From contig JACPDL010000001.1 of NCBI GenBank assembly GCA_016184005.1, positions 829 to 64,828 of the forward strand: 64,000 bases of DNA, read 5' to 3'. A program made the translations under genes and the position numbers. The stretch is from Candidatus Aenigmatarchaeota archaeon. Lineage in GTDB: Archaea > Aenigmatarchaeota > Aenigmatarchaeia > GW2011-AR5. Under the pieces are notes generated by a model. It searched no databases and was not told the DNA's origin. It saw only the letters and a program-made list of their open reading frames with translations. Below are positions 1 to 62,986 of the stretch, in pieces (position 1 is the first letter of the stretch; each line of letters opens with the position of its first letter).

Positions 1-191
1 AATTTAGTACCGAACTTTGTTAATTCATTGAATTCCTTCTTTGGATCCGGAATGGCGATCTTTTTCATTAACACAAGGTCGCCAAGTCTGCTTACCACAA
101 GCCTGCTGCCTTCCTCAATCCCAAGATCGTTTCTTATCTCCTGGGGTATGACAACCTGTCCCTTGGACGTTACTTTTGTTACTTCTGACAT
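1..191 (-). CDS. AbrB/SpoVT-family DNA-binding protein (antitoxin-like); 3' end runs off the window
   Basis: My own translation from the ATG at 191 gives MSEVTKVTSKGQVVIPQEIRNDLGIEEGSRLVV... The SKGQVxIPxxIR motif is typical of the AbrB/MazE fold. GAGGTGA lies just upstream of the ATG. It is absent from the ORF track because no stop codon falls inside the window. Confidence 0.6.
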   Translation of the reverse strand, partial: MSEVTKVTSKGQVVIPQEIRNDLGIEEGSRLVVSRLGDLVLMKKIAIPDPKKEFNELTKFGTK

Positions 192-381
192 GACATCACC
201 TCTCAGTAAGAATGTATTACTTTCCAACTTTATAAGGTTTACGGTAATCGGCTAGCAGGGAACGCGACAAAGAAACTGAAAAGGGCAGGCGACGTTCACC
301 ACGGCGCTGTCAGCGCCGGCGCCTTATAAACAGCCCAAACACCGCAATATTTAAATACTTTCCGGCTTTAACTATTAAACA

Positions 382-909
382 GTGATAATCATGCAGTACA
401 AATCAAGGTGGGCAAGAGGCCTTGTGGCTTCCCTCGGACTGATGGCAGCCGCGCACGCGCCCGCATACGCGCAGGGCGTTGCGGCAAAGGACAGCGGCAA
501 GGACGGGCCCGACGGCAGGCAGTACAGGGTCATCGCAATCCATGCCAACGGCAACGCCAACGGCTCGAAGCCGCTGATCGTCCTCGACAGGCTCGACGAC
601 GGCATAAGAATAGAGCCTTTCCTGTCCCCATGGCAGTACACGGAATCCACAGGCTCAGCAGCCGTGGACGCGGCAGGCTTCAAGGGCTACACAGCAGAGA
701 AGATCATGGACAGGGGCAGCGTAATAGGCTACGTGCTGGAGCCGCAGGACAGCCCGGGCGCAGGCAGGATACTCTACTCCTTCGACAACAGCAGGAACGG
801 CAAGGCCGTCATGCGAGTCTCCCAGGAAAGCCTGACCCAAGCCGGAGGAGCAGGTGGGGCTGGGGGAGATGGCGGAGCCGGAGGCGGCGGGGCTGGCGGC
901 GGGTATTAA
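382..909 (+). CDS. Secreted hypothetical protein with a Gly/Ala-rich C-terminal tail, in a GC-rich block
   Basis: It has a signal-peptide-like N-terminus (RGLVASLGLMAAAHAPAYAQG) and a tail GGAGGAGGDGGAGGGGAGGGY. An alternative start is at 391. GC content is far above the window average, and overlapping same-length ORFs in other frames are the expected GC artefacts. Confidence 0.5.
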   Translation: MIIMQYKSRWARGLVASLGLMAAAHAPAYAQGVAAKDSGKDGPDGRQYRVIAIHANGNANGSKPLIVLDRLDDGIRIEPFLSPWQYTESTGSAAVDAAGFKGYTAEKIMDRGSVIGYVLEPQDSPGAGRILYSFDNSRNGKAVMRVSQESLTQAGGAGGAGGDGGAGGGGAGGGY

Positions 910-918
910 CTTCTCATT

Positions 919-3726
919 CTAACAGCCAGTTGCTATAAATGAATTAGTTATTGATACACTATTCAAATTATTATCTGTGCCACTGAGTGTTTCTATAAAA
1001 TTTCTAGGTTGACAGTATGTCCAAAATGCGCCTGGGATTATTACATCACCACTCGCAGGAACAGATACTGAAATACTCAAGCAATCGGTTGTTTCTGGGA
1101 ATCCTCCACATGCTGCCCAATACCTACATTTGCTAGTTAATGTTACACCAACGTTGTTTGTTTCTTGTACTCTAGTTGAATAATAGTATGCTGTAGCACC
1201 TTCTGGTGGTGTGATAGGCGACCCGCCACAAACCGCTGAACAGCTTGGTCCGCACGCCAAGCTTGCAAGCAGCACAGCCATCTTCACGCAGGTGTCGCCC
1301 GTCTGGGCATAATTCGGCGGGCAGCCGCACACGCTGGCTTTGTCGATCAGCGCGCCGGCCTGGCAGAACTTCGGCTTGGTCAGGCTGCATGCGCCGCTGG
1401 CTGTGCCGTCGGGGCATGACGGCGAGCAGGGCGTGCTTGTTTCCGTATAGTATCCTGACGGGCAGGAGGGGCTTAAGGAGCATGAAACTGTCTGGGCGGG
1501 CTTCGCGTAGCAGTGGCAGTTCCACTTGTCCGGGATGAAGAAGAAGACCCAGTGGCAGGCGGAGCCTTCAACGCTCTTCACGTTCCCCGCGCCGTATACG
1601 GGGTCATACGCATTCTCGCAGTCGTCGTCGCAGCTGGAAACGCACATCGTCTCGATGTACTGCCAGTCATTGCTCCTGCATGTCAGCGCGTTCCATCCGG
1701 GGAGCACGCAGTTGTCTCCGCTCGCCGTGTAGCCCGCAGGGCAGCCGCAGGTGCCTGCCCTGCTTACAAGGCCGCCGCCCTCGCAGCGCAGGGGTTTCGT
1801 TGCGCTGCACGCGCCCTCAAGCGTGCCGTCCGAGCACACGACCACGCAGCTATCACCACTCACCGCATATCCCGAAGGGCATCCGCATATGCTGGCCCTG
1901 TTGACGAGGCTCCCGCTCAGGCAGTACTTGGGCTTCGTTATGCTGCATGAGCCGCTGGCTGTGCCGTCGGGGCATGTTGGCACTATGCAGCTGTCTCCGC
2001 TCGCGACGTATCCCGAAGGGCATCCGCACACGCTGGCTTTGTCAACAAGCGCCCCGTCCTGACAGTACTTAGGCTTCGTTGCGCTGCATGAACTGTATGC
2101 AGTGCCGTCGTTGCATGTCGGAACCACAGGGGTGCAGCTGTCTCCGTTCACTACATAGCCAAAGGGGCATCCGCATATGCTGGCCCTGTTGACGAGGCTC
2201 CCGCTCAGGCAGTACTTCGGCTTCGTCACGCTGCATGCACTGTACGGCGTGCCGTCAGCGCATGTCGGCAGAACGCAGCTGTCTCCGCTCGCGACGTATC
2301 CCGAAGGGCATCCGCACACGCTGGCTTTGTCAACAAGCGCGCCGGCATCGCAGTACTTGGGCTTGCTCGTGCTGCAGCTGCTGTACGCAGTCCCGTCAGC
2401 GCATGTTCCGGCGACGTTCACCACGGCGCTGTCAACGGCGACGCCTCCCGGCCCTGTGCACGTCAGCGTGTAGGTCTGTGTTGCGGTTATCGGCGGTGTA
2501 AGCTCTGATCCTGACAGGCTTTTCGCGCCGGACCACGAACCGGATGCAGAGCAGGAATCCGCGTTTGATGATGTCCACGAAAGCGTTGCCTGCGAGCCGT
2601 AGGCAATAGTCGGGCTCTCCATGCCGTTGGCCTTTATGTCGACAACCGGCAGGACGCACGGCCCGCAGTCGGCCGTGCACGTCGAGCAGGTTTCTCCAAG
2701 CTCGCATCCGTTGGCTCCGCACGTCGTGCAGGTGGCGTTGGCTATGACGTCACCGGAGCTGCATGTCGGCACCGATGCGCAGATGGTCTGGAAATCCTGC
2801 GTGCATGTAGTTTCGAATATTAGAGGAAATGTGGGAACGCATGATATTGTCGTGTAACCCGGCGGGCACGGCGGGCAGGTGAGAATCTGCGTCACGGTTG
2901 TCGTTTCCCTGCACGTGAGCCGGGTGGTTGTAGGCAGGCTAGCGATGGCCACAGTGACATTGTCGCTTGCCGTCCCGCCTATTCCTGTGCACGAAAGATA
3001 GAACGTTTTTTCCGATGTTACCGGCGGCGTAATCTCCGTGCCAGTGAGCGGCTTCGAGCCGGACCAGCCGCCGGATGCCGTGCATGTGCTTACGTTGGAA
3101 GACGTCCACGACAGCTCGACAGACAGGCCCGAGCGTATCACGAGGCTGTCGTTGCCGTCACCCTTCAGGTCCACAGCAGGCAGGGGGCACGTGCCGCAGT
3201 CAGCCGCGCAGGTAGCGCATGTTTCGCCGGCCGCAGCCTGGCAGAACATATCACCGCATACTACGGACCGGCAGCTTCCGTCTGCCGCGCAAACCTGCCC
3301 CAGCGGGCAGCTGCATGTGGTGCATTTATTGACAAGCGTGCCGGCCTGGCAGAACTTCGGCTTTGCCGCAGAGCACCTGTCATATGCAGTGCCGTCAGCG
3401 CACGCCGCCGCCACGCTGCCAAGGTCCGACAGGTAGACCCTGTTGTCGCCGGCCAGCAGATGTGAGACAAGCTCGACGTAGGGACTGGTGAGGCCCGCCA
3501 TCGGTATGCCGTATCCTGTGAAGTCGACATCCACATAAGGCTTGTTCACGGCCTGGATTACCTTCTCAGACGCCATCAGGGTTCTCGGCGAGTTGTAAAG
3601 GTTAACGGTTATAATAAACTGGTAAGGCACAGGCTGATCAAGCGGTATTTTTAGGCTGCCCACGATCTGCGCATGGCCAGTCGCAGCAGCAAGCAGAATA
3701 GCGACAATGAAAATTATTTTTTTCAT
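919..3726 (-). CDS. Large secreted cysteine-rich repeat protein (adhesin or surface-protein-like), with two Ig-like domains and at least 7 copies of a ~47-aa six-Cys module
   Basis: The ORF is 919..3750. I prefer the start MKKIIFIVAILLAAATGHAQ (ATG at 3726) because it gives a Sec-type signal. The repeat module is C-x-DGT-x4-CS-x2-KPK-[YF]-C-x2-G-x-L-[VI]-x3-[SGT]-x-CGCP-x-GY-x3-GD-x-C. Two SWTSSN...C.ASG.WSG domains are each preceded by GETC.TC.ADCG.C. Confidence 0.8.
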   Translation of the reverse strand: MKKIIFIVAILLAAATGHAQIVGSLKIPLDQPVPYQFIITVNLYNSPRTLMASEKVIQAVNKPYVDVDFTGYGIPMAGLTSPYVELVSHLLAGDNRVYLSDLGSVAAACADGTAYDRCSAAKPKFCQAGTLVNKCTTCSCPLGQVCAADGSCRSVVCGDMFCQAAAGETCATCAADCGTCPLPAVDLKGDGNDSLVIRSGLSVELSWTSSNVSTCTASGGWSGSKPLTGTEITPPVTSEKTFYLSCTGIGGTASDNVTVAIASLPTTTRLTCRETTTVTQILTCPPCPPGYTTISCVPTFPLIFETTCTQDFQTICASVPTCSSGDVIANATCTTCGANGCELGETCSTCTADCGPCVLPVVDIKANGMESPTIAYGSQATLSWTSSNADSCSASGSWSGAKSLSGSELTPPITATQTYTLTCTGPGGVAVDSAVVNVAGTCADGTAYSSCSTSKPKYCDAGALVDKASVCGCPSGYVASGDSCVLPTCADGTPYSACSVTKPKYCLSGSLVNRASICGCPFGYVVNGDSCTPVVPTCNDGTAYSSCSATKPKYCQDGALVDKASVCGCPSGYVASGDSCIVPTCPDGTASGSCSITKPKYCLSGSLVNRASICGCPSGYAVSGDSCVVVCSDGTLEGACSATKPLRCEGGGLVSRAGTCGCPAGYTASGDNCVLPGWNALTCRSNDWQYIETMCVSSCDDDCENAYDPVYGAGNVKSVEGSACHWVFFFIPDKWNCHCYAKPAQTVSCSLSPSCPSGYYTETSTPCSPSCPDGTASGACSLTKPKFCQAGALIDKASVCGCPPNYAQTGDTCVKMAVLLASLACGPSCSAVCGGSPITPPEGATAYYYSTRVQETNNVGVTLTSKCRYWAACGGFPETTDCLSISVSVPASGDVIIPGAFWTYCQPRNFIETLSGTDNNLNSVSITNSFIATGC
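1693..2403 (-). repeat. Tandem array of five Cys modules inside the large CDS, with an A-B-A-B structure of about 288-nt period
   Basis: The segments at about 1881-1940 and 2169-2228, and at about 1997-2050 and 2285-2338, are near-identical at the nucleotide level. Further diverged copies lie at 3262..3402 and 1282..1416. Confidence 0.85.
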
Positions 3727-3796
3727 GCTGAAAATAATTATTCCCGCCACCAGATAAAGATTTTTGGCTCATTAGAACCCGTCATTATATTTAATA

Positions 3797-4171
3797 TTAT
3801 TCTACCGAAGGCCTTATTCCTTCCCAGACCTGGTATCTGTCCGACTGCAGCAGAATAAGATCAAAAGTTACAGTCTTGCTGGTACAGTCATTAATTGTGT
3901 AAAAAACATCAACTGCGTAGCCAATCCTGCCTTTTGAAAGCTGGAAGAAATAAATGTAATCATTCAGGTTTTCCGAAAGTTCCTCGCAAGTGTTCCCCGA
4001 CAACTGGATTGTCCTTTGCAGCCCCTGCTTCAGGTTTGCAAAATGATAGTCTTCGTTATAGCTGGACGTGCCTGCCGTATCAACAGCATTGAAGCTGCGC
4101 AGGTTAGAGGAAACGGCAAAGACCGAGAATGCGATGAATATAGCAGATATTGCAAACCATTGCCCTTTCAT
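3797..4171 (-). CDS. Small type IV pilin-like protein (class III signal peptide candidate)
   Basis: The N-terminus MKG|QWFAISAIFIAFSVFAVSS has K-G followed by a hydrophobic helix, as in archaeal prepilins. The gene sits directly upstream of, and co-oriented with, the large Cys-rich protein. Confidence 0.45.
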   Translation of the reverse strand: MKGQWFAISAIFIAFSVFAVSSNLRSFNAVDTAGTSSYNEDYHFANLKQGLQRTIQLSGNTCEELSENLNDYIYFFQLSKGRIGYAVDVFYTINDCTSKTVTFDLILLQSDRYQVWEGIRPSVE

Positions 4172-4209
4172 GAGTTATTATTATTACTTCTCAATATATA
4201 ATAAATTAT

Positions 4210-6656: not shown

Positions 6657-6751
6657 CTTGAATAGGAGAGGAGGTTGATACGTGCAGAAAGCTTCGCTTT
6701 CTGACGTGCCAGAAAAGCTATGCTTCTCTGAGCAAGGATGTTCTCGACTTA
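6657..6751 (-). repeat. Family-2 composite hairpin element, long copy
   Basis: The minus strand reads AAGTCGAGAACATCCTT + 2 hairpins (CAGAGAAGC..GCTTtTCTG, CAGAAAGCgaaGCTTTCTG) + GTATCAACCTCCTCTCCTATTCAAG. It is near-identical to 38855..38943. Confidence 0.85.
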
Positions 6752-7517: not shown

Positions 7518-7653
7518 GATAACCAATAAAATTTTGAGATGAAAGCTTAAAAGAGCCTTTTCTTTTAAGAAAAGAAAACCCTCGGGAAATCTGCAAAGAG
7601 CAAAGCTCTTTGGGATGCCAGAGAAGCTTTGCTTCTCTGAGCAAGAAAAACGA
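7518..7653. repeat. Array of three or more short hairpin modules between L15e and Rpp30
   Basis: The modules are CCTTTTCTTTTaagAAAAGAAAAcc, CTGCAAAGAGCaaaGCTCTTTGgGAT and CCAGAGAAGCtttGCTTCTCTGaGC. Confidence 0.8.
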
Positions 7654-8148: not shown

Positions 8149-8168
8149 AAAAATCACATAATAAATCG

Positions 8169-8207
8169 GAACCCATAATATTAAATTCAATTAATCGGTT
8201 CCGATAC
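8169..8207 (-). promoter_or_regulatory. Family-1 box, copy a: probable promoter of the L15e operon
   Basis: The minus strand reads GTATCGGAACCGATTAATTGAATTTAATATTATGGGTTC. The A/T-rich TATA-like core lies about 35 nt upstream of the L15e ATG. The box is flanked by the 9-bp inverted repeat ATCGGAACC/GGTTCCGAT. Confidence 0.5.
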
Positions 8208-8260: not shown

Positions 8261-8272
8261 CTCCGAATATTA

Positions 8273-8312
8273 GAACCCATCATGTTATATTTAATTTAAC
8301 CGGTTCCAATAC
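8273..8312 (-). repeat. Family-1 box, copy b (tandem duplicate about 104 nt upstream of copy a)
   Basis: GAACCCATCATGTTATATTTAATTTAACCGGTTCCAATAC, followed by the same GAAGCGGAATCGAAGATTCC module. Confidence 0.7.
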
Positions 8313-8740: not shown

Positions 8741-8968
8741 ATGGTAACGTTTGAAACATTAAAATCTGAGGAAATAAAGTTCGGGAACAACAATTTTCTG
8801 GAAATAGCAAGGAAAAAGGCAATTTCTGACGACGGAGAGAACGAGTTTATTTCTATAAGCCGGGGCTTCATAACACCGAACGGCGAAAAACGCTACAGGA
8901 AAAACTTTACATTGCCATTAAATTCTGAAGTCATTGATTTTGTTGTAGAGAACCTGAAGAAAGTATAA
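8741..8968 (+). CDS. Small hypothetical protein (weak resemblance to the PC4/YdbC-like ssDNA-binding fold)
   Basis: It is 75 aa. The pattern FGNNNFLEIARKK...GENEFISISRGF...GEKRYRKNFTLP loosely recalls YdbC/PC4. This is not verifiable without a profile search. Confidence 0.35.
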   Translation: MVTFETLKSEEIKFGNNNFLEIARKKAISDDGENEFISISRGFITPNGEKRYRKNFTLPLNSEVIDFVVENLKKV

Positions 8969-8978
8969 ACCAGCATCA

Positions 8979-9022
8979 GAACCCATAATATTAAATTCAA
9001 TTAATCGGTTCCGATACCTCCG
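8979..9022. repeat. Family-1 box, copy c
   Basis: GAACCCATAATATTAAATTCAATTAATCGGTTCCGATACCTCCG starts 10 nt after the stop codon of 8741..8968. Confidence 0.8.
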
Positions 9023-9045
9023 AATAATTCCTGATCTTTTTTCAG

Positions 9046-9321
9046 CTACCATTCGCCAAGATATCTTATTATTTCTGTCTGCAGTTGCGCAGCCCTTTCC
9101 CAGAGGGTGTCATCTTTATTCCCCTGCTGCCTGATTTCATCGTGTACCGCAGGGCAGGAAATAACGCGGAAAAGGTCAAGCTCGTTGGACGGGTATGTGG
9201 TTCTCCCTTCATCGGAAAGAAAGCGGGGATCGTCCATTATCCTTGTGTACGCTGTTCTGATCCTTTTGTACTCCATTTCTGCCTCTTCCGGCGTTAGCAT
9301 TGGATCGAAAGAGAGTTTCAT
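9046..9321 (-). CDS. Hypothetical protein
   Basis: A 91-aa ORF with no recognisable motif, lying downstream of the coiled-coil gene on the same strand. Confidence 0.4.
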   Translation of the reverse strand: MKLSFDPMLTPEEAEMEYKRIRTAYTRIMDDPRFLSDEGRTTYPSNELDLFRVISCPAVHDEIRQQGNKDDTLWERAAQLQTEIIRYLGEW

Positions 9322-16112: not shown

Positions 16113-16568
16113 ATGAAGCTCTGCTCTGTATGCCTTAACAGCGACATCCTTTGCAGCGGGTGCCAGAGAAAAATGGAGAATGGGCTCATAAGCAAAACGG
16201 ACGTAGAAGTAAGCAGGGCTCTGGAAAAAACTGTCAATGTGAAAACTGATTTTGTGCGTGCAACAGAACACAAAAGCCAGTTAATTATAGTTTGCGAAAA
16301 GAAAGATGCCAAGCTGATCATAGGCAGGGGCGGCAAAAACGTCAGGGAGATATCAAAACTTCTCGGAAAAGGCGTTAGAGTTATAGAGAATTCAGGCGAG
16401 AAAAAAATGCTAGAGGATATACTCGGCGCTCCTGTTGTTGGAATAAACATAGTTTATCCTGACGAGATCAGGAGAATAAGAATAGACAAGAGATTCAGGA
16501 AGCTGAGGGCAGACCCAGTCCTGCTGGAAAAGATAATGGGCAGCAAATATAATATAACATTTGAATAA
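16113..16568 (+). CDS. Zinc-ribbon plus KH-domain protein (archaeal NusA-like)
   Basis: CSVC...CSGC at the N-terminus, and the KH GxxG motif IGRGGKNV. Confidence 0.65.
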   Translation: MKLCSVCLNSDILCSGCQRKMENGLISKTDVEVSRALEKTVNVKTDFVRATEHKSQLIIVCEKKDAKLIIGRGGKNVREISKLLGKGVRVIENSGEKKMLEDILGAPVVGINIVYPDEIRRIRIDKRFRKLRADPVLLEKIMGSKYNITFE

Positions 16569-16672
16569 GTCGAGAACCTAGGTTCTCATCCTTATGCTCA
16601 AAGACATCGTAAATGTCTTTGGCATCTCAGAAAGCTTTGCTTTCTGAAGATCAACCTCCTCTCCTATTCAAG
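16566..16672 (+). repeat. Family-2 composite element beginning with the stop codon of 16113..16568
   Basis: TAAGTCGAGAACCTAGGTTCTCATCCTTAT + CAAAGACAtcgtaaaTGTCTTTG + CTCAGAAAGCtttGCTTTCTGAag + ATCAACCTCCTCTCCTATTCAAG. Confidence 0.85.
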
Positions 16673-16675
16673 AAT

Positions 16676-16864
16676 ATTATGATATGCTCTTAATACTCCA
16701 CGACTAAAGTCGTGGGTTTCTGAGAGCATGTCATCCCAACATTGTTTATGTAATATCTGCTGTCTAATCCTAAATCAAGCAAAGCTTGATTTGGATTTCT
16801 CAAAGGATTTTGAAGAAATCCTTTGCAGAAAAGACAGCAGTTTTAAGCAATGTTGCGGATAAAG
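16676..16864 (-). repeat. Family-3 double nested hairpin, expanded copy, following the stop codon of 16885..17286
   Basis: The minus strand reads TTTATCCGCAACATTGCTTAAAACTGCTGTCT[64-nt insert]TAGACAGCAG...ATAAACAATGTTGGGATGACATGCTCTCAGAAACCCACGACTTTAGTCGTGGAGTATTAAGAGCATATCAT. Confidence 0.85.
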
Positions 16865-16884: not shown

Positions 16885-17286
16885 CTAGTATCTTCTGGGG
16901 CCAAGCTTCATTTCCATGTTCTTCAGCCTTTCGTTTATGGTTTCCGTCTGGCTGCGTATCGCCGACAGCTGGGCCTCTATTATGTTCAGCCTGTCCAGAA
17001 TGTCGTAATTCCTTGATGATTCATCCTTATTTTCATACTGCTTACTTCCAAAGCCTTGATCGATAGTCAGGTCTTTCAGCTTATGCCTTTGGATTATCGG
17101 CTCTGAGAAATCAGGTTCCTGAGGCTGGTCGAAAGAAGATCTGGCCGGCAGGGGCTCAACAGGCTCGGGCATCCTTGGCTCATCCAGAGGATTGGGCTCG
17201 CCAAGAACATGGGACCTGAAATCGTATACGTCTTCATCGCTTTTCCTGTGCGCAATTTTATCCTTCAGCCTGCCAAATAAACCCAT
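16885..17286 (-). CDS. Hypothetical protein: MGLFGRLKDKI N-terminus, Pro/acidic linker and a C-terminal coiled coil
   Basis: It is a 133-aa ORF. The C-terminal LDRLNIIEAQLSAIRSQTETINERLKNMEMKL is heptad-like. No family could be assigned. Confidence 0.5.
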   Translation of the reverse strand: MGLFGRLKDKIAHRKSDEDVYDFRSHVLGEPNPLDEPRMPEPVEPLPARSSFDQPQEPDFSEPIIQRHKLKDLTIDQGFGSKQYENKDESSRNYDILDRLNIIEAQLSAIRSQTETINERLKNMEMKLGPRRY

Positions 17287-28018: not shown

Positions 28019-28204
28019 ATGGCAGACAGGACAAGGCTCTCAAGCGACATATCCTTGGCTATATCGTTCCTGAGCGGCATGATATTCTCCAATGCCATCG
28101 GCGCAGCGCTGCAGGGCAACTATGTTGTAGCAGTGCTTTCTTTCGGGGCGATAGGCGTCGCGCTGATGATGAAGAAGTTTGTTGACTGGACAGTAAAAGA
28201 TTGA
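28019..28204 (+). CDS. Small membrane protein
   Basis: A 61-aa ORF with two hydrophobic segments. Confidence 0.35.
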   Translation: MADRTRLSSDISLAISFLSGMIFSNAIGAALQGNYVVAVLSFGAIGVALMMKKFVDWTVKD

Positions 28205-28208
28205 ATCA

Positions 28209-28254
28209 GAACCCAATCATATTACATTTAATTTAATCGGTTCCGATGCCTCCG
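28209..28254. repeat. Family-1 box, copy d
   Basis: GAACCCAATCATATTACATTTAATTTAATCGGTTCCGATGCCTCCG starts 4 nt after the stop codon of 28019..28204. Confidence 0.8.
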
Positions 28255-28262
28255 ATAAAATA

Positions 28263-28387
28263 TTTATCCGCAACATTGTTTAAAACTACCGACTTTAGTC
28301 GGTAGATACTACATAAACAATGTTGGGATCACATCGTTCAACAAACCCACAACTTTAGTTGTGGGTTATATCAAGAACGATATGATT
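28263..28387 (+). repeat. Family-3 double nested hairpin, minimal copy, between convergent genes
   Basis: TTTATCCG-CAACATTGTTTAaaa[CTACCGACtttaGTCGGTAG]atactacaTAAACAATGTTG-gg-ATCACATCGTTCaacaaa[CCCACAACtttaGTTGTGGG]ttatatcaaGAACGATATGAT. Confidence 0.85.
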
Positions 28388-28956: not shown

Positions 28957-28961
28957 AATTA

Positions 28962-29006
28962 GAACCCATCATATTATATTTAATTTAATCGGTTCCGATA
29001 CCTCCG
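28962..29006 (-). promoter_or_regulatory. Family-1 box, copy e: probable promoter of rps3ae (leaderless or very short leader)
   Basis: The minus strand reads CGGAGGTATCGGAACCGATTAAATTAAATATAATATGATGGGTTC. The TATA-like TTAAATATAAT lies about 25 nt upstream of the ATG at 28956. Confidence 0.5.
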
Positions 29007-30748: not shown

Positions 30749-30960
30749 TTATCCGCAACATTGCTTAAAACTGCTGTCTTTAGACAGCAGATACAAGGAA
30801 GAACAGAGTTCTTCCTGTACAGGTGAAACTTGTTTCACCATGTATTACATAAACAATGTTGGGATGACATGCTCTCAGAAACCCACGACTTTTCTGCAAA
30901 GGACTTCAGAAAAGTCCTTTTCCTCGAATTAGTCGTGGGAGTATTAAGAGCATATCATGA
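30749..30960 (+). repeat. Family-3 double nested hairpin, expanded copy, starting right after the lig stop codon
   Basis: It has the same frame as 28263..28387 plus three extra hairpin modules: two TAC-bounded modules after GATAC, and one inside the CTTTAG loop of hairpin 2. Confidence 0.85.
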
Positions 30961-31109
30961 AAATAATAATTTTATCGCCATTAGCAAGAGTCAATCAATT
31001 CCTAATAAAATTCAGAAATATTTGCTTGGACCAACAAAAATATATATTAAAAATTCTCTGATGTAATTTTTGATCATCTTCATTTTACTCATTTTCATAA
31101 TATGCCCTT

Positions 31110-34871: not shown

Positions 34872-34995
34872 AAATCATATCTTCTTAATATACCACCGAC
34901 TAAAGTCGGTGGTTTGTGAGAAGATGTGATCCCAGAGACATTGTGTTTCATCTGCTGTCTAAAGACAGCAGTTTTCAATGTTTCTGAGGATAAAG
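34872..34995 (-). repeat. Family-3 double nested hairpin, diverged copy
   Basis: The minus strand reads TTTATCCTCAGAAACATTGAAAA[CTGCTGTCtttaGACAGCAG]ATGAAACACAATGTCTCTGGG-ATCACATCTTCTcacaaa[CCACCGACtttaGTCGGTGG]tatattaAGAAGATATGAT. Confidence 0.8.
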
Positions 34996-35084
34996 AAACT
35001 AATAGAAGAGAAACTGGGATTTGGCGTCTAAAGATTAAATAAGAAATTGGGACAGAAATTGGGATATTCGCGTAAAACAAACGC

Positions 35085-40097: not shown

Positions 40098-40599
40098 TCC
40101 AAAAGAACTCAATGCAAGGCTCCTGGCAGTCCTGAAATTCCTTCTGAAATTCAACATTTTTGCAATACCCCTCTATCTCATTATATTGTCAGGCTACCAG
40201 GCGGAAGGCCTTATAACAGCCACGGCAGACATTGTCGAGCAGCTTCTTTCACTAACAGGCACAAGCTTTGAACGCACGGGGCTGATATTTTCCGTCCCTG
40301 TCGATAACGGAAACTGGGGGGCTGTTATAAACTGGGACTGCGTAGGCTGGAAGTCATTGCTTGCTATATTTGCACTGGTCATGGCAACAGATTACCCTAT
40401 GAGGAAAAAGCTGAAAGGACTGGCAGTCTTATTGCCGGCTGTCTATATAGCCAATATCCTCAGGATTGTATTCCTGATATGGTATGTTGCAGCATATGAC
40501 ATCGCTTATTTCTCGATCGTGCATGCTGTCTTATGGAGCTGGGGGCTTGCCTTGCTCATACTGGGTTCCTGGGTCTTGTGGCTCAAGAGTGTGAGATAA
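40018..40599 (+). CDS. Archaeosortase/exosortase-family membrane protein
   Basis: It is polytopic, and NWDCVGWKS carries the conserved Cys of the family. The start is uncertain because the ORF overlaps the upstream gene by 80 nt. Confidence 0.65.
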   Translation: MSWRKAFRSLLSSGSKPTRKGGRYRNNPKELNARLLAVLKFLLKFNIFAIPLYLIILSGYQAEGLITATADIVEQLLSLTGTSFERTGLIFSVPVDNGNWGAVINWDCVGWKSLLAIFALVMATDYPMRKKLKGLAVLLPAVYIANILRIVFLIWYVAAYDIAYFSIVHAVLWSWGLALLILGSWVLWLKSVR

Positions 40600-40610
40600 T
40601 CTTAATACAA

Positions 40611-40730
40611 GGAGAATACCACTGTTTTCAAACAGTGTTATTATAATGGTATTCTCCGGTATAAAAGAATCCACAAATAAGATACGTGGTATTTCTCCGA
40701 AATACCACCATTTTAGATGGTGGATTCTTT
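40611..40730 (+). repeat. Two adjacent nested hairpins after the archaeosortase stop codon
   Basis: GGAGAATACCA[CACTGTTTtcAAACAGTG]...TGGTATTCTCC, followed by AAAGAATCCAC...[GTGGTATTTctccgAAATACCAC]...GTGGATTCTTT. Confidence 0.75.
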
Positions 40731-40767
40731 TTATATACAGCCTGAAATAAGATAATTTAGTGGTACC

Positions 40768-52703: not shown

Positions 52704-52808
52704 GGGAGAAGCGAAGCTTCTCCGAGATCTTCGGAGAAACCCTGTCTCTCCGAGATTCCGAAATCCTTTGGATTTCGAGAATTCCAAAAAGCTACGCTTT
52801 TTGAGAAT
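52704..52808 (+). repeat. Family-6 array of four tandem hairpin modules
   Basis: GGAGAAGCgaaGCTTCTCC, TCGGAGAaaccctgtcTCTCCGA, CCGAAATCCtttGGATTTCG-AGAA and TTCCAAAAAGCtacGCTTTTTG-AGAAT. About 80 nt are shared with 58788..58867. Confidence 0.85.
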
Positions 52809-52941: not shown

Positions 52942-53066
52942 GGGCTTGTAGTCTAGCTTGGTAGGACTCCGGCTTCGGGAACAAATCCCTTTCTTGTAAG
53001 AAAGGTCTTTGTGAACCCCAAAGAACGAATTAGTCGGGAACCTGAGTTCAAATCTCAGCGAGCCCA
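52942..53066 (+). tRNA. tRNA-Pro(CGG) with a canonical 52-nt intron at 37/38 (about 52980..53031)
   Basis: Spliced: GGGCTTG TA GTCT AGCTTGGTA GGAC T CCGGC TTCGGGA GTCGG GAAC CTGAG TTCAAAT CTCAG CGAGCCC A. All stems pair, with one G-U in the acceptor stem. Position 37 is G, as expected for Pro. Confidence 0.85.
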
Positions 53067-58772: not shown

Positions 58773-58787
58773 TAGACACCTATTCAT

Positions 58788-58867
58788 CTTCGGAGAAACG
58801 AAGTCTCTCCGAGATTCCGAAATCCTTTGGATTTCGAGAATTCCAGAAAGCTGCGCTTTTTGAGAAT
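58788..58867 (+). repeat. Family-6 array of three hairpin modules after the ATPase stop codon
   Basis: CTTCGGAGAAACGAAGTCTCTCCGAGATTCCGAAATCCTTTGGATTTCGAGAATTCCAGAAAGCTGCGCTTTTTGAGAAT. Confidence 0.85.
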
Positions 58868-62589: not shown

Positions 62590-62680
62590 CGAAAATACTA
62601 GCCATCTAATCTTCTAAAGCCTTTCCTCCGGAGAAATTGTAATGTTTGCGTGATTAATTGGATTGTGTAAAACAAATTTC

Positions 62681-62986
62681 CTAGTCGTAAAGCCCGCCGC
62701 GGGCAACATCGTAGATTATCAGCAGCAGGCCGAGAAACAGGATCAGGTTACCGTATAAATCATAGGGCTTCGGGAATGTCTGCGTAAGCGCTGTTGCTTT
62801 CAGCAACGCCCCAAGCACTGCAGCGACGACGCCTGCAGCAGCTATAGGGTATTTCTGTTTCTTCTTCTTTGCCCAGCCAAAGCACCGCTTGCATTTCACG
62901 ACAACTTTGCCAAATCCAATCTCAAGCGTGCCGTCGTCTTTGCTTTTGCCCCGCTTTTTTCTTGCAGGCATTATAGAAATTGTCAA
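62681..62986 (-). CDS. Small membrane protein
   Basis: A 101-aa ORF with a basic N-terminus, a CKRC pair and two TM helices. Confidence 0.4.
   Translation of the reverse strand: MTISIMPARKKRGKSKDDGTLEIGFGKVVVKCKRCFGWAKKKKQKYPIAAAGVVAAVLGALLKATALTQTFPKPYDLYGNLILFLGLLLIIYDVARGGLYD

Follow-up and report, generated by a model that had tools for sequence, protein, structure and literature searches.

A repeat of two nested hairpins dispersed among intergenic sites in groundwater Aenigmatarchaeota, and its relation to gene 3' ends

Four copies of a structured repeat, here called Family 3, occur in the 64,000-nucleotide (nt) stretch of DNA analysed in this study (the window, from contig JACPDL010000001.1 of a Candidatus Aenigmatarchaeota archaeon), each in the sense orientation behind a stop codon. 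The locus therefore raises the question of whether the repeat is a signal that belongs to the 3' ends of genes or an element that has moved into the gaps behind them. Family 3 is a repeat of about 120 nt of groundwater Aenigmatarchaeota (DPANN archaea), and no earlier description of it was found in the literature. The best reading of our data is that it is a structured mobile element of a known general kind, new in its variant form, and very probably a selfish repeat, with hairpins that serve to propagate it.

A covariance model built from 16 copies slightly refined the boundaries given in a first-pass annotation of the window and kept the number of copies at four. Copy 1 (28264-28386, plus strand) is intact with 123 nt, copy 2 (30749-30958, plus strand) has 210 nt, copy 3 (16679-16862, minus strand) has 184 nt, and copy 4 (34874-34993, minus strand) is again intact with 120 nt; copies 2 and 3 are of subfamily A and copy 4 of subfamily B. 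They score 82-135 bits while every other match in the window stays at or below 28 bits, and no fifth copy was found in the 64 kb by the covariance-model search. In about 215-290 kb of related DNA (loci and genomes labelled L) the same model gave 29 strong matches of 68-139 bits, or about 25 distinct copies with unrelated flanks once same-locus duplicates across samples are removed, the sources being the window, three Aenigmatarchaeota metagenome-assembled genomes (MAGs) and several metagenomes. Scanning metagenomes with a degenerate pattern of module II gave 20 loci, and an 18-mer scan of a genome collection returned 99, nearly all in unrelated bacteria; the four real copies among these belong to two Aenigmatarchaeota MAGs. 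Two scans of viral collections found no Family 3. Besides subfamilies A (CAACATTG...) and B (CAGAGACATTG...) there are several divergent forms. Copy 4 is about 96-98% identical to subfamily-B copies at at least seven other loci in related genomes, and one Family-3 copy occurs in L124, a genome whose ligase is only 71% identical. The density reaches four copies per 64 kb in the window and three in 10 kb of L103.

Intact copies are 120-123 nt long and consist of two hairpin-within-hairpin modules. The 5' part begins with TT, followed by ATCC and the 5' arm of outer stem 1, AAAA, and a 20-nt tip hairpin with a stem of 8 base pairs (bp) and a TTTA-type loop; after about 8 unpaired nt the 3' arm of outer stem 1 closes with a GGGAT junction. 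Module II has the 5' arm of outer stem 2 (C/G-ACAT...), CA(C/G)AAA, a second 20-nt tip hairpin, about 7 unpaired nt and the 3' arm of outer stem 2, which ends in AT(A/G)T(G/C)AT. In copy 1 the initial TT is at 28264-28265, module I at 28266-28329 with its tip hairpin at 28286-28305, and module II at 28330-28384 with its tip hairpin at 28346-28365, the terminal AT coming after it; the tip hairpins of copy 4 are at 34952-34971 and 34893-34912. The two modules are homologous, built alike and in direct orientation, and the two halves look like a tandem duplication of one module. An A-rich tetranucleotide, AAAA or (C/G)AAA, is nearly invariant 5' of both tip-hairpin feet, and in all intact copies the tip hairpins begin 22 nt from the 5' end and stop 19-20 nt from the 3' end. 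The termini are not reverse complements of each other (5' TTATCC(G/T)C... against 3' ...AT(A/G)T(G/C)AT; TTATCCGCAAC... against ...GAGCATATCAT), and comparison of the ends found no terminal inverted repeats in Family 3. Every copy with a 5' end readable by motif opens with T(T/C)AT, which may be target or part of the element; a 48-nt deletion variant stops exactly at the left edge of TTATCC.

The fold itself is as the first-pass annotation had described it, with two nested hairpins per copy. Copy 1 folds as DNA at -32.8 kcal/mol, compared to -9.3 +/- 2.3 for shuffled sequences (z = -10.2), and copy 4 at about -28 kcal/mol against about -9 (z = -7.3). Within the window, a TTTA/TAAA loop on a G+C-containing stem of at least 7 bp is found in the four elements only, the sole other TTTA/TAAA-loop hairpins being two of pure A/T, at 4196 and 7557. 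In a structure-blind MAFFT alignment of 16 copies, 94.8% of the cells are paired and 23 of the 40 pairs show double changes; covariation scores 0.46, while column shuffles give 0.18 (0/500) and alignments with slid partners 0.05-0.08. The set of 26 distinct copies aligned to the model, which is biased toward the model, gives similar figures (94.9% paired, 31 of 40 pairs double-changed, a score of 0.484 against 0.164), with the tip-hairpin helices (2 and 4) 98-99% paired. At least ten entirely different outer-stem-1 sequences are found, every one of them paired. Covariation this far beyond chance, together with the many paired versions of stem 1, strongly supports selection acting on the fold and not on the sequence. 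The compensatory change reported for the window copies is real, and it supports the view that the copies are under structural selection rather than being decaying junk.

On the details of sequence, the quoted tip stems were all correct and some other points needed amendment. The frame TTTATCCGCAACATTG, taken as common to all copies, matches exactly in three; copy 4 reads TTTATCCTCAGAAACATTG, as a member of subfamily B (TTATCCTCAGAAACATTG...). The CTTTAG loop described as constant is interrupted where two nested inserts sit in CTT^TAG. The third version of outer stem 2, the 3' arm in copy 4, had been quoted as AGAAGATGTGAT; its true sequence is AGAAGATATGAT, which means that all window copies carry the same C.A mismatch there. 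In the wider set most copies have a mismatch at a single position close to the base of stem 2 (C.A in 16/25). With the conserved mismatch excluded, the given strand has G.T in 21 cells at 12 pairs against A.C in 7 cells at 6 pairs, which is modest evidence that the given strand is the one that folds. Tip loops are found as TTTA/TAAA and TTCA/TGAA, in reverse-complement pairs (L095, L118, L061, L124 and L019); no single-step intermediates between them were seen among the copies, and they may stem from loop inversion of DNA hairpins.

Copies 2 and 3 are longer than the intact ones because other small hairpin elements are nested inside them. Copy 2 owes its length to two inserts on the plus strand. 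One (30795-30845) is a pair of small hairpins, 51 nt in all, that occupies the 3' internal loop of module I; the other (30892-30929) is a hairpin element of 38 nt, TTCTGCAAAGGA..., lodged in the CTT^TAG loop of tip hairpin 2. The composite with the first of these recurs at other loci (L104 and L107/L077), which implies that composite copies spread after the nesting. Copy 3 holds a 64-nt TTCTGCAAAGGA... hairpin chain on the minus strand in the CTT^TAG loop of tip hairpin 1 (16767-16830), and two different parent elements, those of L110 and L117, carry an identical insert at this position of the loop; in all there are four cases of the TTCTGCAAAGGA... element at this loop position, with different parents. 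Short-hairpin chains with GAGA(A/T)(T/G)CC-like linkers also recur in many intergenic regions; those of the window are at 6683-6736, 7592-7645, 16564-16660, 52727-52808 and 58786-58867, in addition to the nested ones at 16767-16830 and 30892-30929.

Evidence on the question comes from related genomes, where the sites occupied in the window can be compared. The junction between the DNA ligase and GlmS genes, which in the window contains copy 2 and another 150 nt, has 0 nt (TAA^TTA) in L122 and L124. Similarly, S3Ae lies 1 nt from its convergent neighbour in L124 where the window has copy 1, and in L122 this junction holds different hairpin repeats. In L123 (94% DNA identity) the interval of window copies 2 and 4 lacks Family 3, and there is a sister-family insertion which the window does not have. 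A Family-3 copy in L105/L111 is absent from window 62647-62683 in a region of 95-96% identity, and in contigs matching window 56.5-63 kb at 95-96% identity there is, besides a Family-3 copy, a sister-family insertion; the window has neither. Occupancy thus differs at five of the five sites compared between genomes of 94-96% identity, and since the element is absent at orthologous sites in close relatives it is not a conserved part of the 3' ends of those genes. Logan short-read contigs from several samples stop 23-29 nt into copies 1, 2 and 3, a break of the kind that a repeat is expected to cause. Taken together, the data show that Family-3 elements are insertions, dispersed in either orientation to unrelated intergenic sites.

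The genomic contexts point in the same direction. The window holds archaeal housekeeping genes, and the named relatives of the ligase next to copy 2 are Candidatus Aenigmatarchaeota MAGs. Copy 1 lies between a conserved open reading frame (ORF) of 61 amino acids (stop at 28204) and the gene of ribosomal protein S3Ae, whose stop codon (28387, minus strand) it abuts. The ligase stop codon directly precedes copy 2, with GlmS convergent from 31110, and copy 3 has a KH-domain gene (plus strand, stop at 16568) and a 133-amino-acid ORF (minus strand, stop at 16885) as convergent neighbours; copy 4 lies in a variable region, next to a GlmU-like gene and a 231-amino-acid ORF, both on the minus strand. 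The sense position downstream of a stop codon therefore holds in the window, at 0-91 nt, but copies 1-3 are equally antisense to a convergent neighbour and next to its stop, which makes the word 'sense' arbitrary for them. As a rule for the family, the siting at gene 3' ends does not hold. The 25 classifiable copies comprise 7 between convergent genes, 6 between divergent genes, 6 in tandem and co-oriented and 6 in tandem and anti-oriented, by our own ORF calls with the decisive cases verified; 13 of the 25 lie downstream in the sense direction, and the other 12 are antisense or fall in divergent promoter regions. Copies lie between divergent epimerase and glycosyltransferase genes (L102), divergent tRNA-synthetase and beta-CASP genes (L121) and divergent S3Ae and ligase genes (L124), and those of L116, L095 and L103 are antisense to real genes. 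Orientation relative to flanking genes, which had been proposed as the observation that could refute a 3'-end role, is random once the copies of related genomes are added. The role of a dedicated 3'-end or termination element is not supported for Family 3, and its orientations fit random intergenic landing. Its apparent position at gene 3' ends in the window follows from a very compact genome, in which the gaps between convergent genes are the safest landing places: ORF gaps are typically a few tens of bases, whereas around copies 1-4 the gaps exceed 150 nt and consist for the most part of the repeats.

Could the repeat nevertheless act at the level of RNA? As a cis-acting structured RNA of 3' untranslated regions (3'-UTRs), for termination or for protection of mRNA from 3' exonucleases, in the manner of the hairpins of bacterial repetitive extragenic palindromic (REP) sequences and intrinsic terminators, Family 3 would account for the sense position of all four window copies 0-91 nt after a stop codon, for pairing kept by compensatory change, and for the excess of G.U-compatible over A.C mismatches on the given strand. 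Against this stand the random 7/6/6/6 contexts, the convergent genes around three of the four window copies, the same genes without the element in relatives, and the stem-2 C.A mismatch on this very strand in most copies. Comparison of the copies found no conserved oligo-T 3' of the element, and no Rfam 15 family matches it (best 23 bits against a gathering score of 60). We therefore consider such an RNA quite unlikely as an explanation of the family, while some copies may have a secondary use for the host. A similar but more population-based view, that the host maintains REP/REPIN-like repeats through a single domesticated enzyme and vertical persistence in the service of the cell (DNA topology, protein binding, mRNA decay), is unlikely as well. 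It agrees with the occurrence of the family in genomes with 71%-identical ligases (L124), with diverged stems on the same architecture, with the high density in a small genome and with the conserved fold. REP sequences and REPINs are also abundant intergenic imperfect palindromes with conserved structure and drifting sequence, their mobile unit is a two-unit composite, other small mobile elements insert into them, and effects on mRNA are possible. In REPINs, however, two inverted units fold into a single long hairpin with a GT[AG]G foot, whereas Family 3 has tandem direct modules with an A-rich foot and no GT[AG]G; the class 2 Y1 enzymes, the REP-associated tyrosine transposases (RAYT), are not known from Archaea (PMC6006769), and the turnover of occupancy between genomes of 94-96% identity looks like ordinary selfish activity.

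Among DNA-based alternatives, the size and intergenic location of the repeat would fit a classical miniature inverted-repeat transposable element (MITE) moved by cut and paste with a DDE transposase and terminal inverted repeats. MITEs such as the Correia elements and those of DPANN archaea defined by terminal inverted repeats (PMC11602168) are likewise non-coding intergenic sequences of about 100 nt, taxon-specific and dense in small genomes, and high MITE densities have been reported for DPANN genomes in particular (PMC11602168). The termini of Family 3 are not mutual inverted repeats, though, its conserved features are internal hairpins and not ends, and its sister families (described below) insert without target-site duplication, all of which makes a MITE of this type very unlikely. 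The case of attC sites, with a tyrosine recombinase capturing gene cassettes as in integrons, was considered as well; integrons and attC sites have been reported in Archaea, including one Aenigmatarchaeota MAG (PMC9668308). As in attC, the substrate would be defined by a single-strand fold with conserved mismatched bases, often 3' of genes, the structure being kept as the sequence changes. The strand is the same for copies 1 and 2, which are separated by 2.4 kb; at the positions of copy 2, copy 4 and the copy in L105 relatives hold different accessory genes, and subfamily A is partly R-box-like (ATCC-GC-AAC ... GTT-G-GGAT). The AAC/GTT boxes are missing, however, from subfamily B and the divergent copies, so that Family 3 has no conserved R/L boxes (RYYYAAC ... 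GTTRRRY), and published archaeal attC sites are single hairpins, not pairs, with TAAC...GTTA boxes (Data S9, PMC9668308) that are missing from most Family-3 copies. There are no co-oriented cassette arrays at Family 3 either, where the neighbours are core and syntenic: the S3Ae and ligase genes that separate copies 1 and 2 belong to the syntenic core in relatives without the element. Given also the random orientation relative to genes and the lack of any integrase in a Pfam scan of the window ORFs, we regard attC-like sites as extremely unlikely. Three further candidates were discarded. An H/ACA guide RNA, prompted by the ACA after module I, has no K-turn here and does not suit a multi-copy repeat in random contexts; hammerhead and other ribozymes are not indicated by any core motif or Rfam hit; and a Helitron/IS91-like A^T target is inconsistent across families.

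This leaves the reading of Family 3 as a mobile element, for which the closest known system in working principle is that of the palindrome-associated transposable elements (PATEs) derived from IS200/IS605, which are moved in trans by TnpA (HUH/Y1). We favour, with some reserve, the view that Family 3 is a non-autonomous element moved as a folded single DNA strand in an IS200/IS605-like manner; for the specific IS200/IS605-like mechanism our judgement is evenly divided. Of the two agents of structural selection suggested in the first-pass annotation, an RNA and a single-stranded DNA intermediate, the latter is the one favoured by the evidence. A trans-acting enzyme would recognise the fold on one DNA strand and move it by single-strand 'peel-and-paste' transposition of the IS200/IS605 (HUH/Y1 TnpA) type; the element would be excised and inserted 3' of a short motif (TTAT being the probable one here) with no duplication of the target. 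The small subterminal hairpins would be the binding sites of the enzyme, with the A-rich tetranucleotides that precede the hairpin feet contributing to the choice of cleavage site. In the IS200/IS605 system the rules are subterminal hairpins of 20-25 nt, a guide tetranucleotide 5' of the foot and a flanking target motif (PMC6006769, PMC10055086), and IS200-type Y1 transposases do occur in Archaea (PMC6006769, PMC10055086). Like the PATEs, Family 3 has subterminal hairpins of about 20 nt near each end, all on the same strand, and asymmetric ends that are not inverted repeats; a conserved tetranucleotide precedes each hairpin foot, the left junction has a constant motif, and coding capacity is lacking. 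Its sister families add precise insertion 3' of a motif without duplication. It is this combination of seamless insertion 3' of a motif, subterminal hairpins, foot tetranucleotide and asymmetric ends that gives the signature of the IS200/IS605 type.

The sister families X and Y provide the insertion sites on which this comparison draws. Family Y is a two-module hairpin repeat of the same build as Family 3, with copies at window 40599-40734, L124 9665-9796, L108 1882-2066 and L122 3378-3516. An empty site at window 61474 reads CACTGATA directly followed by TTTTTGTAG, and the filled site in L108 reads CACTGATA, then the element CCTTAAC...GGTTTTTCACA (its 3' end also quoted as TTTTTCACA), then TTTTTGTAG. 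The insertion is seamless and without target duplication, and TGATA, which pre-exists in the empty site, stands 5' of all four distinct copies. One Family-Y copy that directly abuts a Family-3 copy carries the exact B-type tip hairpin CCACCGAC-TTTA-GTCGGTGG, and such an identical hairpin in both families suggests one shared enzyme. Family X (TCTTGCATTCC...GGAATGCGGGAT...ACA), again of two-module hairpin build, is found at L123 5152-5249, L122 about 8834-9150, L121 about 960-1060 and, in nested form, L117 about 3585-3706, with an empty site at window 34752. Its left junction has GAAA immediately before TCTTGCATTCC...ACA in 3/3 sequence-matched copies and at the L122 site, and no duplication is present; the L117 copy is nested in a Family-3 copy, of which uninterrupted relatives read GAAA^ACTG. 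Upstream of the GlmU-like gene, L122 and L123 have Family X at a site that is empty in the window, which fits either precise excision or repeated use of one target. Extended to Family 3 by homology, this pattern would make the invariant T(T/C)AT of its left edge the target motif.

A further feature that resembles IS200/IS605 is found next to the second tip hairpin. The hairpin model leaves the base at position -4 from the foot of tip hairpin 2 without a partner, yet in each of the 25 distinct copies it is the complement of base 2 of the terminal TNAT (CG 11, GC 12, AT 1, TG 1). This resembles the contact between guide and cleavage site of IS200/IS605-type elements, and we take it as a lead and not as a result.

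Several observations weigh against the single-strand transposition proposed here. The -4 match involves only two or three independent changes and the -4 base mirrors the state of its stem-2 partner, while a guide-like rule for the left end fits in L118 and is contradicted in L110. The opposite strands fold about equally well. The outer stems of Family 3 enclose the small hairpins and pair the very ends, which has no parallel in the described ends of IS200/IS605; the tandem dimer and the lack of a remnant of a TnpB/guide-RNA scaffold are further differences from PATEs. No clean pair of an empty and a filled site was found for Family 3, the copy-2 and copy-4 sites being occupied by non-homologous DNA in relatives, and both the absence of target duplication and the TTAT target are carried over from the sister families. 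As to the enzyme, Pfam detected no transposase or integrase among the 50 window ORFs, and none was seen among the genes called on the related loci; a crude tblastn with Y1/RAYT queries against about 300 kb of DNA, a weak test, gave no match. Nor did we find a cognate TnpA or an autonomous parent with the same ends, solo modules, or split ends flanking an ORF. Since only fragments of genomes were read, the absence of a transposase is weak evidence. Membership in the IS200/IS605 family is accordingly not established.

A more speculative extension, which we offer tentatively and think rather less probable than its opposite, is that Family 3, X and Y and the hairpin chains lodged in loops form a guild served by one single-strand DNA enzyme that would read a hairpin and a guide-like base and insert seamlessly 3' of motifs of 4-5 nt, with some copies perhaps co-opted as RNA-level or promoter elements where intergenic regions are very short. 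If true, DPANN archaea would gain their first described REPIN/PATE-like replicator system. Genomes of these archaea are very small and gene-dense, so that non-coding bases are conspicuous in them, and structured elements, inserted beside and into one another, make up a large share of the longer intergenic DNA here, which is why assemblies of these organisms fragment at such sites. The data also call for caution in taking hairpins after genes for archaeal terminators, and the elements could mislead structure-based searches for attC sites or non-coding RNAs. Should the enzyme be found, the hairpin, the short target motifs and the guide-like covariation would make a compact archaeal model of single-strand transposition, and the elements themselves would be usable as strain-level markers for uncultured Aenigmatarchaeota.

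Some minor observations concern the sites discussed above. The ligase-GlmS junction is a hot spot: window 30749-31109 holds the repeat and 150 nt of unassigned DNA, and relatives have there a 196-amino-acid ORF, or VapBC together with DUF3800 (L123 1543-2215; L127; L129 1875-3367). The Family-3 copy of L111 is part of a 1.87-kb indel (L111 2609-4481 against window 62647-62683) that also includes several small minus-strand ORFs, and in which the 35-nt 3' end of a small gene (AGTCGTAAAGCCCGCCGCGGGC...) is present three times. In L122 (9425-9467, compared to window 34994-35040) only GCGGATAA is found, the reverse complement of the Family-3 5' end TTATCCGC; it lies where a 75-amino-acid ORF stops, next to sequence homologous to the flank on the 5' side of copy 4, and may be the remnant of an old copy or a chance match.

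Other features of the window are of a different kind. A 43-nt repeat with inverted arms of 9-10 bp (ATCGGAACC...GGTTCCGAT) and an AT-rich, TATA-like core occurs at 8165-8207, 8269-8311, 8975-9017, 28213-28254 and 28959-29001, upstream of ribosomal-protein genes (L15e, S3Ae); a second one of these lies just before copy 1, so that direct repeats flank the unit of copy 1 and S3Ae. The sole hit at gathering level in Rfam is a tRNA gene (52942-53066, 45 bits), which has 125 nt and hence contains an intron. Window 1-4000 has a G+C content of 56-57%, compared to about 44% elsewhere, and tandem repeats of 138-147 nt lie inside a minus-strand ORF of 943 amino acids (919-3750), possibly a repetitive surface protein.

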